A program made the position numbers and the translations under genes. Shown piece after piece: positions 9,396-15,273 of a stretch of 64,000 nt of DNA (the first letter of the stretch is position 1; every line of letters begins with the position of its first letter). A model generated the notes under the pieces. The model was not told the origin of the DNA and searched no databases. It worked only from the letters and a program-made list of their open reading frames with translations. Origin of the DNA: an uncultured Syntrophobacteraceae bacterium (GTDB lineage Bacteria; Desulfobacterota; Binatia; UBA9968); assembly GCA_964404195.1 (NCBI GenBank), contig CAYOJC010000010.1:6514-70513 (forward strand), given 5' to 3'.

Positions 9396-10403
9396 ATGCG
9401 AACGTCCTGCAATTTGAAAGTCGGCGCGATCGTCGGCGCGATTTTACTTTGGTTCTCTTCAACGGCCCCCGCCGCCGAGCTAAAAAAGGTCCGGCTCGCC
9501 TACGTCGGCTGGGAGGTCGGCGCCGCGATATCCTACGTCGGGATCGACGGGGGCATCTTCAAACAAAACGGCATCGAGGTCGAAGAGATTTTCATCCGCG
9601 ATCAGCTCGCCGGCGGCGTCCAGTCGTTGATCGGCGCCGATTTCATGATCGGCTTCGGCAATCCACTGGCCATCGTCCAGCCGGTTTTGGCCGGCTCGGA
9701 CCTCGTCTCGCTCTGCGCGCACGTGAGCGTGGAACCCTACGGCATGGCGGTAGCTCCCAACATCGGGAAAGTCGCGGAGCTCAAAGGGAAGCGGGTCGGC
9801 GTCTCCGAACTCGGCGGCAGATCCGACCTGATCGCGCGCGTCATGCTGCGCCGCGCCGGACTTGACCCGGTCAAAGACGTCGAGATCGTCTCCGCCGGGC
9901 TGGCGCCCAACCGGATCATGGCGCTGTCGAAAGATCTCATCCAGGGCGCGCCGCTGAATCAGCAATTTGCCGCCGAGGCCAAGCGACTCGGAGTCAAGAT
10001 CATCGACGTCAAGGATATACCCACGGTCACCGCGCTCCTGCTAACAACGCGGTCGTTCATCAAGAGAGACGAGGAAACGGTGCGGCGCTTCGTAAAGGCA
10101 TACGTGGAGGCGATTCATTTCTATCTCACCCGCCGCGCCGAAACCATCGCCATCATCAAGAAATATTTCAGCGGGGCCAACCCGGCCGCGCTGGAGACGA
10201 TGTATCAGGCCTTTGCCGCGCAACTGCAGCCGCTGCCTCTTCCCGACAAGGAAGCGACTCAAGCGATGATCGACACCGTCGCCGTCATCGATCCGAAATC
10301 CAAAAACCTGAAGCCGGCCGACCTTTTCGAATCGCGCTTTCTGGACGAACTCAAAGCCAACGGCTTCATGGAAAAGCTCTACGCGGAAAAAGTCAGCCTG
10401 TAA
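9396..10403 (+). CDS. ABC transporter substrate-binding protein (SsuA/NMT1-like)
   Basis: signal peptide, LKGKRVGV..LGG.SD, GLDPVKDV. Confidence 0.9.
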   Translation: MRTSCNLKVGAIVGAILLWFSSTAPAAELKKVRLAYVGWEVGAAISYVGIDGGIFKQNGIEVEEIFIRDQLAGGVQSLIGADFMIGFGNPLAIVQPVLAGSDLVSLCAHVSVEPYGMAVAPNIGKVAELKGKRVGVSELGGRSDLIARVMLRRAGLDPVKDVEIVSAGLAPNRIMALSKDLIQGAPLNQQFAAEAKRLGVKIIDVKDIPTVTALLLTTRSFIKRDEETVRRFVKAYVEAIHFYLTRRAETIAIIKKYFSGANPAALETMYQAFAAQLQPLPLPDKEATQAMIDTVAVIDPKSKNLKPADLFESRFLDELKANGFMEKLYAEKVSL

Positions 10404-10535
10404 TTGAAAGCGTTGGTTTTCTTTGCTATCTGCCGGCCGCGGTTTCACAGAAGTGCCTCTCCGTTAGAGGTACAGCGCCAAACCTATCATCGCTTACCAG
10501 AGCAAGTCGCTCGTTCAGCGGCTCTTGGGTCGGTA

Positions 10536-10633
10536 GGTGAACCAGTCGTTGCGGCGACACGCCACGTGCGCAGGTGGCCGTCTTCGGCGCGCGTAGGCTG
10601 TGGGGCACGCCACTGAACTCAGATCCGTTATAC
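10536..10633 (+). other. degenerate integron attC site (attC1)
   Basis: GGTGAAC-cagtcgttgcggcgac...gccactgaactcagatcc-GTTATAC, directly after the stop of a startless ORF tail (...SLVQRLLGR*). Confidence 0.55.
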
Positions 10634-10677
10634 GGTCGGCGCTTCTATTGTAGTTGACACTGCGATAAACTGCTTTT

Positions 10678-10920
10678 GTGCCGGCGTTGCTGAGGGTTCG
10701 TGGATACCGATTTTTCTTCTTTAGCATGGAAGGACGGGAACCACCTCATATCCACGTAGCCCAAGCTGGACGGTATGCCAAGTTTTGGCTTGAGCCTGTT
10801 ACGCTTGCGGATGTGCGTGGTTTTAGAAGTCACGAGATCACTGAGATTCGACGGCTAGTTTTTGAGAATCAGCAGTTTTTCCTGGAGAAGTGGCATGAGT
10901 ATTTCGCCGAAAAGAAGTGA
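10678..10920 (+). CDS. DUF4160 domain protein (TA-like pair)
   Basis: MP.LLRV.GYRFFFFS.E..EPPHIHV...AKFWL...WHEYF. Confidence 0.9.
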   Translation: MPALLRVRGYRFFFFSMEGREPPHIHVAQAGRYAKFWLEPVTLADVRGFRSHEITEIRRLVFENQQFFLEKWHEYFAEKK

Positions 10921-11221
10921 AGCTTTAGCGATTGATGTTTCTTGCACCGTCGACACGCTGACGGTGCTTCTCGCGGATGGTCGAACGGTTTCTGCGCCCG
11001 TTGCTTGGTTTCCCCGCCTCATCGCAGCCACTCCCAAGCAGAGGGCTGACTGGGAATTAATTGGCGGGGGTATCGGTATTCATTGGGAATCTATTGACGA
11101 CGACATCTCTGTTGCGAGTCTCCTGCAGCCGGAAAATTTTATGCGCCTGCCTAACGAGTCCCTGCAGCCGACGCGCAAGAAGCGGCCCGTAAAGCTTCGT
11201 GGTCAAAGCATGCGCGGCTGA
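10895..11221 (+). CDS. DUF2442 domain protein (TA-like partner)
   Basis: L.DGRT.S.P..WFPRL..AT..QR..WELIGGG.GIHW..IDDDISV; the C-terminus runs into attC2. Confidence 0.9.
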   Translation: MSISPKRSEALAIDVSCTVDTLTVLLADGRTVSAPVAWFPRLIAATPKQRADWELIGGGIGIHWESIDDDISVASLLQPENFMRLPNESLQPTRKKRPVKLRGQSMRG

Positions 11222-11238
11222 AAGGCCTGCCGTTAAAA
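11149..11238 (+). other. integron attC site (attC2)
   Basis: R'' GCCTAAC, L'' ctgcagccgacgcgca pairing with tgcgcggctgaa, R' GTTAAAA; 90 bp. Confidence 0.8.
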
Positions 11239-11346
11239 ACTCCCTAGAAGGAATTGAGCCGACACGGAAGGCCTTGAGAGTTTCAACTTAATCACTGTGT
11301 TTTTCTCGCCTAACACTCTCTCGCTAAACGGCAATCAAAAAATTGA

Positions 11347-11473
11347 TCACCGCAGCCCTCTGACGATCGACTCCAATCGAGCCGTGACGAGCCACCCGGG
11401 CTGGCTGAGAATGACTCTCGCGGCGGAAGCCGAGATCGGCCGGCCGAGGTTTCACAGGCGCGCCCTTCCGTAA
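11347..11473 (-). pseudogene. diverged duplicate of the 3' end of gene 14026..14283
   Basis: LGRPISASAARVILSQPGWLVTARLESIVRGLR* versus FGKPISASAARIILSQPGRLVTARLESIVRQLR*. Confidence 0.9.
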
Positions 11474-11553
11474 ATCGCCTCCCCGCTTATTCCCCGCGAG
11501 CACGAAGTCGAATTGAAGCGAGCTTTACCCTGGCTGGGGACCTGCGCCGAAAT

Positions 11554-11616
11554 CAAAGGGGTCACAAAGGACAAAGGACAAAGGAAAGGACAAAGGACAA
11601 GACAACAAAGGGGTCA
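11554..11616 (+). repeat. CAAAGGA tandem stutter between two CAAAGGGGTCA copies
   Basis: caaaggggtca-caaagga-caaagga-caaagga-aagga-caaagga-caaga-caa-caaaggggtca. Confidence 0.9.
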
Positions 11617-12642
11617 AGTCCGCTCTTAGCCCTTGACATGCCGAGCAAGATTCACTAGATGCTCTTTATGGCTCGTCCACTACGCATTGAATACCCCGGG
11701 GCATACTACCATGTCATGAACCGAGGTCTTTCCCGCAGGGCCATCTTCTTGGAGGAAAAGGGCCGAGAGCGGTTTTTGGACTTACTTTCCGACATTGCGC
11801 AACTCTGGAAGATAGAGATCTACGCCTACTGTTTGATGGATAACCACTACCACCTCCTCTTTCAGACCCCTAAGGGGGACTCGCCCGCGCGATGCGACAC
11901 CTCGATGGGATCTACACCCAGAGGTTCAACCGAGCCCATCACCGAGACGGTCCCCTATTCCGGGGCCGCTACGAGGCGATCCTGATCGATGCCGAGGAGT
12001 ACTTTTTGTCTGTGGTCCGTTACATCCATCAGAACCCCATAGAGGCAGGAGTCGTATCGGACATAGATCGCTACCGCTGGAGCAGCCAACAGGGGTATCT
12101 GTCAAAGCGCGAGCGTCCTGTATGGCTCAATCCCACTCGGTTCTATCTCGGTTCGGTGGCGTTAGGGAATACCGGGAGTTTATGCACTCTGAGGTTGAAA
12201 AGGAGGTCGTCGATTTTTACAAAGGACCGTATCGGAGGTCGATCTTAGGGGATAAGAGATTTGTGGAGTGGGTCAAGGAGAGACTTGGTGACGGAGCCAG
12301 AGTGGAGGAGGAAAAGCCTGAGTCTCGCAGGGTATTTAAGTTAGGGATTGAGCAGATTGCCCGGGTAACAGCTAAGGTACGGTAAGCCCTTGGAGGAGCT
12401 AAGGAGAAAGCGGCGAGGTGAGGAGAACGAGGCGCGGTCGATGGCGATGTATCTGTGTCGGACCTTGGGAGGGCACAGGCATAGCGAGATCGGTAAGGTG
12501 TTGGGGTTAGAGAAGACCTCATCGGTGAGTTCAGCCTGTTTGAGGATGAAGGCGAGAGTTGGGGTGGAGAGGAAGATAGCCCGGAGAGCGGGAAGGATTG
12601 AAGAAGAACTACAAAAGAGCCAAGGGCGGACTTGACCCCTTT
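11607..12642 (+). mobile_element. Y1 (HUH, RAYT-like) transposase element bounded by 24-bp inverted repeats
   Basis: left aaaggggtcaagtccgctcttagc (11607-11630) versus reverse complement of 12619-12642 aaaggggtcaagtccgcccttggc, 22/24 identical. Confidence 0.8.
11668..12635 (+). pseudogene. Y1 transposase with C-terminal DnaA-like HTH, three frameshifts
   Basis: MARPLRIEYPGAYYHVMNRG, NHYHL (HUH), YIHQNP, YRWSS, ARSMAMYL...SEIG..LG; split over four ORFs (breaks near 11875, 12130, 12385). Confidence 0.9.
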
Positions 12643-13116
12643 ACCTTTACCGATGATCACGATGTCGTCGGCTTGTTCTCCGTCGTGAACCTCAACAGGC
12701 GCCCCGTCAAGGTCTGGCTCTTCAACCTCCTCAGCGAGATCGAAGTTCGACTCGGTGAATTCGTGTCCCGGCACGTCAACGATCAAGAGCTGTACAGCCT
12801 GACTCTTGGCGCGACGACAGATCCCAAGTACGAGGCCGTCAAGCGCCGCTACAAGACAGATCAAGACAACGGCCTTGAGTTGCCTGTGGCCGAATATCTG
12901 TATTTCAAAGACTTGATCAAAGTGGCCGTCTCGAACTCACTCCACCGAAAGCTTGATTCGAGCCGCACTCACTTCGAGCGGTCACTGGGTTCATTGGCCG
13001 CCCTTCGCGACGAAGTAGCTCACCCGGCTCGTTCCTTGGTGCGGGAGGCAAAGGGGGTTATGAGTCTGCAACGACGCGTCGAGCGGATCGATGATACGCT
13101 TAGAAGGTTGCGGTGA
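12643..13116 (+). pseudogene. 5'-truncated CBS-like/HEPN (Rx4H) protein
   Basis: VVGLFSVVNLNRRPV..WLF..LSEIE, EYLYFKDL, LRDEVAHP; no start codon after the transposon end. Confidence 0.55.
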
Positions 13117-13125
13117 AACTGCGCA

Positions 13126-13878
13126 ATGCATTATGACTTAACTTCCGTACCCGAGAGGTATCACAGTTCGCGTGCATTGGCATCTGCCGATGTGAGAAGA
13201 TGGGTGAGTCTTGTTCAAGAGGTCATCCAGCCTGAAGTTAGCAAGTCGTTGATTGATCTTGGATGTGGCACTGGACGATTCACCGTGCCGCTAGCTGAAC
13301 AATTGGGGATTCCTGTTATCGGCGTTGATCCATCGCGGAGGATGCTCCGAGAAGCAAAGGAAAATGCGAGCACATCACGAATTACGTATCGAGAAGGCAG
13401 CGCAGAGTCCATACCGTTGGATGCAAACGCTGGGGCATTGATATTCATGTCGAACGCCATTCACCATGTGAAGAACCTTGATCAGGCTTTGCGGGAGATG
13501 GCCAGAGTCCTCCAACCGCACGGCATTGTGTTCCTCCGAAATTACTCGCGCGAAAATCTGGAATCTCTCTACTATCTACAGTTCTTCCCAGAGGCTATTC
13601 AAATCTCCCGAGAGATGATCTGGCCGCGTAGCACGTTTGTTGAAAGCTTCAGGGCCAGAGGCTTTGCCTTGCTATCGCAAGGAACCGTGCATCAAGAGGC
13701 ATCACCTGACTTTGAGGCTTATATCAGAAAGATCAGTAGCCGAGTCTATTCGGATCTGGCTCTTATTACGGATGAGGCGTTTCACCGAGGCCTCGCTAGA
13801 ATGAAAGAGTCTGGTGCATCGTTGGGAGACGGGCCTGTTATGGAGGACGTTGACTATTTCGTATTTCAGAGATGTTGA
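13126..13878 (+). CDS. class I SAM-dependent methyltransferase (cassette gene)
   Basis: IDLGCGTG, GVDPS..ML, AESIP, LREMARVLQP.G; lower GC than the flanks; attC begins 2 bp after the stop. Confidence 0.92.
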   Translation: MHYDLTSVPERYHSSRALASADVRRWVSLVQEVIQPEVSKSLIDLGCGTGRFTVPLAEQLGIPVIGVDPSRRMLREAKENASTSRITYREGSAESIPLDANAGALIFMSNAIHHVKNLDQALREMARVLQPHGIVFLRNYSRENLESLYYLQFFPEAIQISREMIWPRSTFVESFRARGFALLSQGTVHQEASPDFEAYIRKISSRVYSDLALITDEAFHRGLARMKESGASLGDGPVMEDVDYFVFQRC

Positions 13879-13879
13879 T

Positions 13880-13972
13880 GCCTAACCCGTCGCTGGAGCC
13901 AACGCCTCGGTCGCGTCGCGGTTGCAATCGCCCGCGCCCGACTCGGCGTGGCTCAGCTCTCAGCCGTTAAGA
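13880..13972 (+). other. integron attC site (attC3)
   Basis: R'' GCCTAAC, ctggagccaacgcc pairing with ggcgtggctcag with extrahelical bases, R' GTTAAGA; 93 bp. Confidence 0.88.
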
Positions 13973-14025
13973 CTCTCTCTAGGGACTTTACTGGACACGG
14001 AAAGGCCGCGAGACTCTCGTCTAAA

Positions 14026-14283
14026 TCACCGCAACTGCCTGACGATAGACTCCAAGCGCGCCGTGACCAGCCGCCCTGGCTGGCTTAAAATGATTCTTGC
14101 CGCGGATGCCGAGATCGGTTTGCCGAAGAGACTAAGGCGGCGTCCGTCTCTTTCTTGATTGTTCGCCCACTCGGCAAACTCCTCGGGCGTCGGCGGATGG
14201 CCGATCTCGCACGCGCACCGGCGCACGATGAAGCCGAGCATCATCTTGTTCTGATCGGTTTTTCTCGCCGCGTTATCGTCCAT
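14026..14283 (-). CDS. small hypothetical protein (gene X)
   Basis: 85 aa, GHPPTPEEFAEWANN; its 3' end is conserved at the protein level in the diverged copy at 11347. Confidence 0.8.
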   Translation of the reverse strand: MDDNAARKTDQNKMMLGFIVRRCACEIGHPPTPEEFAEWANNQERDGRRLSLFGKPISASAARIILSQPGRLVTARLESIVRQLR

Positions 14284-14337
14284 CGTTGCGAATTGTTTTC
14301 TTTCTACAGCCTACCGCCTACAGCCTATCGCCTGTTT

Positions 14338-15273
14338 TTAGTCCGTCAGGTGCGTCGTGGCTTTCATGTGCTTGTCGACGGTCACATAGCCGCGGTACTG
14401 ATCCACCATCCAATAGCGGACGCCGAACTCGAATCTCAGCTCCTTCATATCGACGTCGTTGGGATTGAAATGCTGGTGGTGCATCATGCCCGGCGGCACG
14501 TGCACCGCGTCGCCCTGCACCCAGTCGTGCCGCTTGCCGCCGATTTCCGAGTAGCCGCTGCCTTCCAGCGCGTACAGATACGCCTCCGGGTGGGCGTGGC
14601 TGTGGCTTTTCGTATGCGCGAGATCGACGAAGATCGAGCTGATCGCCACCGCCGTCGCCTTGAAGCCGTTCTGCTTACCGCTCCGGCCCATGAGAAAATA
14701 AGTCGCTCCGTGCTTGGACTCGTCGGATTTTTCGAACTGCTCCTGGTGCATCGAGATGCGCCGGCCGTCGACCGGCCAGGATTGCGATTCCTCGGAGGGA
14801 AATTTCGCGAGCGCCGACGCGTCGTTCTGTCCGGCGTCATCGATCTGCTGCATCGGCCCCATGCGTATGAACGACTCGAGCGGCCAGGCCAGGCCGGAGA
14901 GGTAAACCACCGGCTCCTTGCCGGTATTGAAGAGCTGGTGCGCGGAACGATGCGGCACATGAAAGATCGTCCCGCGATGGAAATTATATCGCTTGTCGTC
15001 GAGAATCATGAAACCTTCGCCGCTCTCGACGTAGATCGCCTCTTCGCCGTGAACGTGCTTGCCCGTGTGCCAGCCCGCGGCAATCTCCGCCTTCATCAAT
15101 AGACTGCCGCCCGTGGGAAAGCCGGTCTCGGGAGCGATCATCAGCGCGGCCTTGGCATCTTGCCGCGTGCGAACCCAATTCAAATCTTTCCCGCGCGCCA
15201 CGCGCGGCCCCTCATTCACGACTTTCTCGTTCAGTTCCGATTCATCCAACCACGCCTGATAAAAATCTTTCAT
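14338..15273 (-). CDS. bicupin domain protein
   Basis: two cupin motifs (HTGKHVHGEEAIYV..G.G; HSHAHPEAYLY..EG.G...HHQHFN); RBS GGAGG before ATG 15273. Confidence 0.9.
   Translation of the reverse strand: MKDFYQAWLDESELNEKVVNEGPRVARGKDLNWVRTRQDAKAALMIAPETGFPTGGSLLMKAEIAAGWHTGKHVHGEEAIYVESGEGFMILDDKRYNFHRGTIFHVPHRSAHQLFNTGKEPVVYLSGLAWPLESFIRMGPMQQIDDAGQNDASALAKFPSEESQSWPVDGRRISMHQEQFEKSDESKHGATYFLMGRSGKQNGFKATAVAISSIFVDLAHTKSHSHAHPEAYLYALEGSGYSEIGGKRHDWVQGDAVHVPPGMMHHQHFNPNDVDMKELRFEFGVRYWMVDQYRGYVTVDKHMKATTHLTD

Follow-up and report, generated by a model that had tools for sequence, protein, structure and literature searches.

Probable head-to-tail joining of two hot-spot alleles between a binding-protein gene and gene X in an uncultured Syntrophobacteraceae bacterium

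Results

The sequence analysed here, which we call the window, is a stretch of 64,000 nucleotides (64 kb) from contig CAYOJC010000010.1 (positions 6,514 to 70,513, forward strand) of assembly GCA_964404195.1, an uncultured Syntrophobacteraceae bacterium. Within it, two converging conserved genes, an NMT1-type solute-binding-protein gene that ends at 10403 and a small gene that we call gene X (14283-14026), bound a region that holds two units, each consisting of post-gene sequence (the intergenic DNA behind the binding-protein gene), cargo, an attC site, a spacer and an X tail. We consider it likely, at a probability of roughly 0.78, that these are two alleles of one hot spot placed head to tail at a microhomology of 11 in 12 nucleotides, DNA from a related strain having been anchored by homology in one flank and joined illegitimately at its other end. 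Below, G000 denotes the genome that holds the window and G001-G053 its relatives; C numbers denote contigs, and X numbers (X3, X4, X5) denote sequencing runs. The features of the region, in window coordinates, are as follows.

9396..10403, plus strand: NMT1-type solute-binding-protein gene, the left flank; conserved, and likely a recombination anchor
10404..10462, plus strand: post-gene intergenic sequence of allele A; not derived from X
10463..10632, plus strand: GTTAGAG core, then a short gene-less cassette-like stretch with a decayed attC-like site at its end; a tentative assignment
10678..11221, plus strand: DUF4160 and DUF2442 gene pair, which we take to be toxin-antitoxin-like; common to G006 and in part to G001
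11149..11238, plus strand: attC2, by profile match and folding
11232..11345, plus strand: allele A spacer, beginning at the attC2 GTT
11347..11447, minus strand: 3' tail of X in displaced position; lesion-free, with 33 codons plus stop, 81% identical
11435..11446, plus strand: microhomology joint, 11 of 12 nt, X allele versus post-gene sequence; allele A counterpart at 10428-10439
11448..11471, plus strand: second, partial copy of the post-gene intergenic sequence, the start of allele B
11607..12642, plus strand: Y1/RAYT-like transposase element, 1036 bp, with 28-bp inverted ends; coding region in pieces
12643..13116, plus strand: remnant open frame abutting the Y1/RAYT-like element; no family match
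13126..13878, plus strand: class I methyltransferase gene cassette
13880..13972, plus strand: attC3, by profile match and folding
13966..14025, plus strand: allele B spacer, beginning at the attC3 GTT; in G008 also directly before X
14026..14283, minus strand: gene X, 85 amino acids, no named family; conserved

A preliminary description of this DNA had taken 11347-11473 for a 3' fragment of gene X, 10426-10465 for a third, more decayed X end, and a TCCGT motif for the point at which all of these homologies stop. The first assignment holds for most of its length, since 11346-11447 aligns with 14025-14126 at 81% identity over 102 nt. The remainder, 11448-11473, is not X: 449 of 2000 shuffled sequences score as well against X, and none of 2000 does so against the post-gene sequence of G006. 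Likewise, 284 of 2000 shuffles score as well against X as does 10426-10465. This segment matches only the tail of the 11347-11473 piece (0/2000 shuffles) and DNA behind the binding-protein gene in relatives, and it is the ordinary sequence at that place in G006, G008 and metagenome contigs. Because the 11347-11473 piece is chimeric, being X as far as 11447 and then a second post-gene copy, there is no common TCCGT endpoint. After TCC the three places read GTTAGAG (at 10463, as had been reported), GTAAATC and GTCTCTT. The layout of three modules proposed earlier reduces to two units, in which the repeating unit begins at the post-gene sequence and no crossover is fixed. The homology described between the ~60 bp after attC2 and the ~60 bp after attC3 was borne out, with none of 2000 shuffles reaching its score. 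A resemblance between spacer and post-gene sequence was rejected, since 1517, 536 and 106 of 2000 shuffles were as good.

The X tail retains its reading frame and stop codon, and 11 of its 20 differences from X fall at third codon positions. It is nearer to foreign alleles (83-86% identical) than to the resident X (81%), and the intact X is host-like (94% identical to that of G001). At the joint that ends this tail, 11 of 12 bases match between the two parents, an allele from G007 standing in for the X parent; the probability of such a match by chance is 5e-5.

The interval between the binding-protein gene and X is a hot spot. We compared 20 stretches fetched around X, several of which end at a contig edge. 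A second X copy is present in only one of them, that of G006 (225 bp, 95% identical), where a mazEF pair with no detected attC lies between the copies and the copy extends past TCCGT. In G001 the duplication affects the other flank: a 164-bp copy from the end of the binding-protein gene, 87% identical, is followed by a C-terminal piece of an integron integrase gene (intI), attI-like DNA, a cassette and the same Y1/RAYT-like element at another position. G008 holds a short insert, the allele B spacer and a single X; in G008 and at L095, attC-like sites were seen by eye but not detected by the profile described below. Run X3 contains a further joint, from 11221 back to 10047, which again affects the other flank. 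None of five metagenome loci has an X copy, and in more distant relatives the interval holds unrelated genes or almost nothing. Mosaicism marks the left flank: over its final 300 nt the binding-protein gene shows only 85-87% identity between strains that share 97.5% in uvrB. The end of this gene is likely a recombination anchor; ordinary flank exchange would give the same pattern. G001 is fixed for a 399-bp deletion (window 10402-10802) that takes out the first cassette together with half of DUF4160, and the same deletion occurs in runs X3, X4 and X5.

Of the 41 genomes sampled from the order, 34 have gene X, nearly all as a single copy; the gene lies behind a bicupin gene. Its only Pfam match is a sub-threshold one to HNH_repeat, and its atlas scores are at most 0.80. 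Its 83 relatives at E values up to 0.001 are all unnamed, with longer repeat proteins among the distant matches; nothing in these searches ties gene X to recombination. In DNA searches of 90 family genomes both spacers were found only at this locus, that of allele A in G000, G001 and G006, and an exact-pattern scan for the spacer in a species-wide genome set returned nothing. An Rfam scan gave a single chance match, and promoter and terminator scans stayed at chance level.

The two attC sites of the preliminary description are real. A sequence-only profile derived from six attC sites that lie elsewhere than in the window ranks attC2 and attC3 above every other match in it (E = 6e-8 and 1e-4), and both fold with their R boxes paired on the bottom strand. 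A candidate third site at 10537-10632 gives a weak partial profile match (E = 2.5) and a folding z of 0.08. The remark that no integrase lies nearby also stands, as no intI above the cut-off occurs in G000, which has a fragment only, on contig C63. Genes above the cut-off are present in 33 of the 90 family genomes but in just 1 of 11 genus relatives. Single attC-like sites lie elsewhere in G000 (C60:25063 and C155:3218), and in the integrons of the family attI-like DNA was seen by eye downstream of intI, an apparent inverted-integrase layout (L059-L088).

A CALIN, a cluster of attC sites with no integron-integrase, is defined by at least two attC sites without a nearby intI (10.1101/030866; this source and those cited below were available in excerpt, and statements about them apply to the excerpts). 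With two or more attC sites but no integron integrase nearby, the locus is a CALIN by that definition. Chromosomal GWT (attG) sites can also receive cassettes (10.1101/2022.09.11.507474). The spacer begins with GTT in four of five copies (twice in G000, and in G001 and G008), and this GTT, placed at the right-hand crossover, agrees with the GWT consensus. An eroded integron fits the locus equally with an attG-type insertion, because G001 carries an intI end and attI-like DNA there. The suggestion that the spacer is itself attI is unsupported, because neither the spacers nor the post-gene sequence match DNA beside the intI genes of the family.

The preliminary description had proposed that cassette-bearing modules inserted in succession at gene X and restored it. 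Stated in full, such a hybrid of cassette and gene-targeting island would integrate site-specifically at TCCGT in X and restore X with an integrase acting in trans. The GTTAGAG at 10463, the fact that both spacers follow attC and lead into X, and the intI genes of the family speak for it. They are opposed by the end of X homology at 11447, by a third piece that is not X, by the break at 225 bp without attC between the copies in G006, by the copying of the other flank in G001, by the rarity of X copies (a single case among the 20 fetched relatives and none at the five metagenome loci) and by the 48 of 49 gene tails across the genome, described below, whose cargo lacks an attC-like motif. A fixed crossover shared among strains, as a gene-targeting island would leave, is not seen, since the breaks fall at 101 bp (window), at 225 bp (G006) and in the other flank (G001 and run X3). 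We regard this hybrid as highly improbable. What survives of the proposal is that pieces were added in succession, in a manner resembling target-gene displacement, but not its unit or its mechanism. The recurrence expected at X orthologues is seen in G006, though in 1 of 20 stretches only and with no attC between the copies.

A chimeric assembly, raised as an alternative in the preliminary description, would also account for two adjacent alleles if two strains had been fused at the multicopy insertion sequence (IS). No listed contig piece spans the whole of the multicopy element at 11607-12642, and strains with other alleles occur in related runs. However, a possible source run gives error-free contigs over 9800-11718 and 12581-14900, at depths of 97.8 and 101.2, and in two other studies runs yield contigs that cross 10802-11718, 11086-11473 and 12377-14178; contigs of three studies contain the X-tail joint internally. 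The junctions outside the IS are crossed in this way by contigs of several studies, the IS itself being unspanned among the listed pieces. Given the equal depth on its two sides and the synteny in relatives, where the flanking genes are neighbours, we take the sequence to be linked across the multicopy element, and a chimera is extremely improbable. No joint at TCCGT, such as an excised circle would leave, is present among the contigs listed from the runs.

Other joints can be compared with that of the window. The G001 joint likewise matches at 11 of 12 bases (chance 5e-5), that of contig C40 at 9 of 12, 7 of them exact (4e-3), and that of run X3 at 8 of 12 (2e-2); microhomology is present at four of the five joints for which parents or stand-in parents are at hand. 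On C40 of G000 (L100 3383-3887) the tails of both converging genes are fused directly at the 7-nt exact microhomology, and each parental allele is found in a relative. Five loci were compared in five relatives; they carry tails of their own, whose joints are in part shared and in part different. For C40 and C16, single parental alleles are available. At a UbiD locus (L101 2585; L129, L130, L131), three unrelated cargoes in four genomes join within ~4 nt of one GC-rich point.

Gene tails of this kind are not confined to the window. A self-comparison of G000 yielded 528 close direct repeats, of which 294 passed filters on length, identity and distance: 65 lay at the 3' ends of genes and 10 at 5' ends, 50 were flagged as paralogue pairs, and 169 stayed unclassified. 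Removal of repeats with distant copies left a final set of 49 single-locus copies at the 3' ends of 44 genes, versus 8 at the 5' ends of 7 genes. The 49 tails have a median length of 158 bp and an identity of 88%, and 41 of them extend no more than 12 nt beyond the stop codon; their cargo measures 1.7 kb at 54% GC, versus 58% for the genome. The targets other than X are enzymes and binding proteins. No target motif was found at tail starts, where there is a slight GC excess (p = 0.04) and no clear k-mer. Because an attC-like motif occurs in only 1 of the 49 cargoes, that of the window locus, we treat the attC sites and the gene-tail copies as products of two separate processes. Stacks of at least two tails behind one gene also occur, for example at L101 (C7:40086-43339), L102 (C64:7415-10171), L105 (C44) and L108 (C101).

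The differences between tails and their genes bear on an old tandem duplication within the lineage, followed by cassette turnover and decay, which had also been put forward as an alternative. Two colinear copies of the interval and frameshifting indels in 14 of the 49 tails agree with it. The mismatches, however, number 229, 139 and 609 at codon positions 1, 2 and 3 (62% at the third position), and third-position differences dominate in 42 of the 49 pairs; 512 codons differ synonymously versus 322 changed, and only 2 new stops appear. This pattern indicates that the tails are pieces of once-working alleles which diverged mostly as parts of working genes, and it contradicts a tandem duplication unless the copy long stayed functional. 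Together with the intact frame of the X tail and its closeness to foreign alleles, it makes such a duplication very unlikely.

Orthologous loci for UbiD, a semialdehyde dehydrogenase and a glutamate-synthase-like oxidoreductase (Pfam assignments) carry tails of their own in G001, G003, G006, G008 and G010. Counted in 20-kb pieces, there are 31 tail loci in 3.22 Mb of G000 and 4-5 in 0.4 Mb of G006, versus one each in ~0.4 Mb of G009, G053, G026 and G025. The rate is thus ~1 per 100 kb in G000 and G006 and ~1 per 400 kb in the four others, an enrichment of about fourfold in one subclade; all of these genomes lie within the order, and the p value of 0.002 for the difference is overstated since kin are not independent.

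The Y1/RAYT-like element of the window, on which the preliminary description is silent, has a second copy in G000 on contig C63 (C63:97-1132), directly behind the intI 3' fragment. The element lies at three different hot-spot positions in three strains (window, L039 / G001, L094). Its end motif occurs dozens of times in G000, and at L104 (G000 C21:31992-32535) the broken tails of two converging genes are bridged by a miniature element of ~45 bp whose ends are of this type.

Such elements might themselves make the illegitimate joints, either through one-ended transposition or through a duplication next to the element, while the opposite end is taken in by homologous recombination. An end-like motif lies in the last 60 nt of cargo at 7 of 49 joints versus 60 of 1878 other cargo windows (p ~1e-3, the motif having been chosen after looking), one end type recurs at joints in G000 C7 and G006 and at a loose end in run X4, and G000 contains 11 Y1 matches. 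On the other side, 42 of 49 joints lack the motif, the distances from motif to joint vary, ~160 bp separate the window joint, which has a microhomology of its own, from the element, and elements of this type gather in hot spots anyway. We therefore consider their involvement unlikely.

Discussion

The tandem alleles, the microhomology joint, the variable breakpoints, the divergence of the tails and the uptake genes can be read directly from the sequence; the route by which the alleles were joined we infer. In a first step, an integron integrase since lost from G000 would have placed cassettes before the spacer, so that different strains would end the array with different cassettes. In a second step, incoming DNA that ran from the end of the binding-protein gene through cassettes, attC2 and spacer to the first 101 nt into X would have recombined in the binding-protein gene, and its ragged end would have been joined to the resident post-gene sequence, so that both cargo sets were kept. 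That the intact X is host-like and the tail foreign leads us to favor the binding-protein gene as the anchor; in that case X would never have been broken or restored here. A mirror route with its anchor in X, or closure of a circle and one crossover, would give the same picture. Such a process would require neither a dedicated recombinase nor a fixed site, and it likely gave rise to the other gene-tail copies of G000 as well. The genes comEC and dprA are present and open in G000; comEC is an open 839-amino-acid frame (C10:4030-6522) just left of the window and ~10 kb from the hot spot. The outcome is additive: the post-gene sequence of allele B is retained beyond the joint, and on C40 both alleles persist. 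Non-homologous end joining was rejected as the joining route, since Ku has no match in G000, G001 or G006 and is present in the scar-poor G009 and G053. Loss of mismatch repair was also rejected, as MutS is present in all five genomes tested.

Several points weigh against the stacking of alleles by one-sided homology as we have set it out. The X parent of the window joint is a stand-in, and the joint on C16, whose donor-like parent is known from G008, has a microhomology of at most 1 nt. The cluster of joints at UbiD is not explained by random joining, and C40 requires a true duplication inside an anchor gene. In classical homology-facilitated events the deleted and inserted lengths are about equal (PMC3240628), unlike the additive outcome here. 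An empty form of the clade's allele, free of cassettes, was not found, the direction of transfer is not fixed by the data, and competence of the host is known from genes alone. Among the tails, the set of 49 includes several that by eye are likely paralogue tails, 169 further close repeats are unclassified, and on contig C5 a later deletion in G006 accounts for some of the variation in length.

It is possible, though we think it doubtful, that additive stacking of alleles is a main integrase-free route of gene gain in this subclade, at ~1 locus per 100 kb, and that it feeds itself. A block of gene end, cargo and tail would have two arms to the same gene and could insert into any allele by ordinary recombination with the resident cargo kept, which would build integron-like arrays behind housekeeping genes. 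A lineage-specific factor, such as competence, the absence of Ku or the ends of Y1 transposase elements, would set the rate. At the semialdehyde-dehydrogenase locus, four genomes have a common cargo and joint and differ behind the stop of the tail, and the tails of G000 and G006 match at 34 of 35 positions in the near part and 21 of 28 in the far part.

Attachment sites that lie beside a duplicated gene end need not share a mechanism with it, and a tempting "new hybrid element" is thereby removed. In its place the locus offers a natural record, with parents and joints known, of the addition of DNA at integrase-less hot spots, by an additive route that has been proposed for toxin loci and shown in the laboratory. 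Since the scars can be counted, a genetic factor that sets their rate can be sought across the 90 genomes. Such tails are a source of error for island finders and gene callers, too.

The closest laboratory parallels are homology-facilitated illegitimate recombination and single-crossover insertion-duplication, with which the locus shares a short microhomology and, probably, a single homologous anchor. Microhomologies at illegitimate joints measure 3-10 bp in the excerpted report, where 56 of 60 Escherichia coli recombinants carried partial duplications, of 109-950 bp in the 14 sequenced, formed by a single crossover of re-circularised DNA (PMC3240628). That range matches the 52-580 bp found here. 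The laboratory events involved identical DNA and, in the classical form, the deletion of ~1 kb, whereas here the alleles differ by 4-25% and the resident cargo is kept, with no deletion of similar-sized resident DNA. A third route, unequal interchromatid integration during transformation, is described elsewhere (PMC3784515).

In rhs C-terminal displacement (PMC2935791) and in the effector-immunity arrays of the Vibrio cholerae type VI secretion system (T6SS; PMC5361080), as in G000, an intact gene is followed by variable-length fragments of related alleles. In the excerpts of both accounts, incoming DNA is added without loss of the old, either through one crossover with a circular molecule or through homology-facilitated illegitimate recombination. 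Here, in contrast, the genes are ordinary ones at dozens of loci, and the tails are near-synonymous alleles that bring no new toxin tips. The peptide of the X tail is almost that of X itself, rather than an exchangeable tip accompanied by an immunity gene, and the cargo consists of cassettes, toxin-antitoxin pairs and transposase elements.

In islands that encode an integrase and restore their target (Islander, PMC4383910), as at the locus, a regenerated gene and a displaced fragment bracket foreign DNA. These islands differ from the locus in that here there is no integrase and no fixed crossover, either flank may be copied, and the copies are diverged alleles. A usual CALIN is one array, whereas these attC sites lie in two stacked alleles with a gene tail and an IS between them. 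Integrase-less hot spots (PMC5635113) have in common with the locus a variable cargo between conserved genes with mosaic ends, in an organism with uptake genes; the model given in that excerpt is replacement by double crossover, whereas the events here are additive and leave tails. A partial search of the literature found no genome-wide description of such tails at ordinary genes. The displacement pattern itself is known from rhs and T6SS arrays; what is new is the set of parent-resolved joints and the roughly fourfold enrichment in one subclade. The locus belongs to the class of integrase-less hot spots and is a CALIN with a displacement scar, not a hybrid element.

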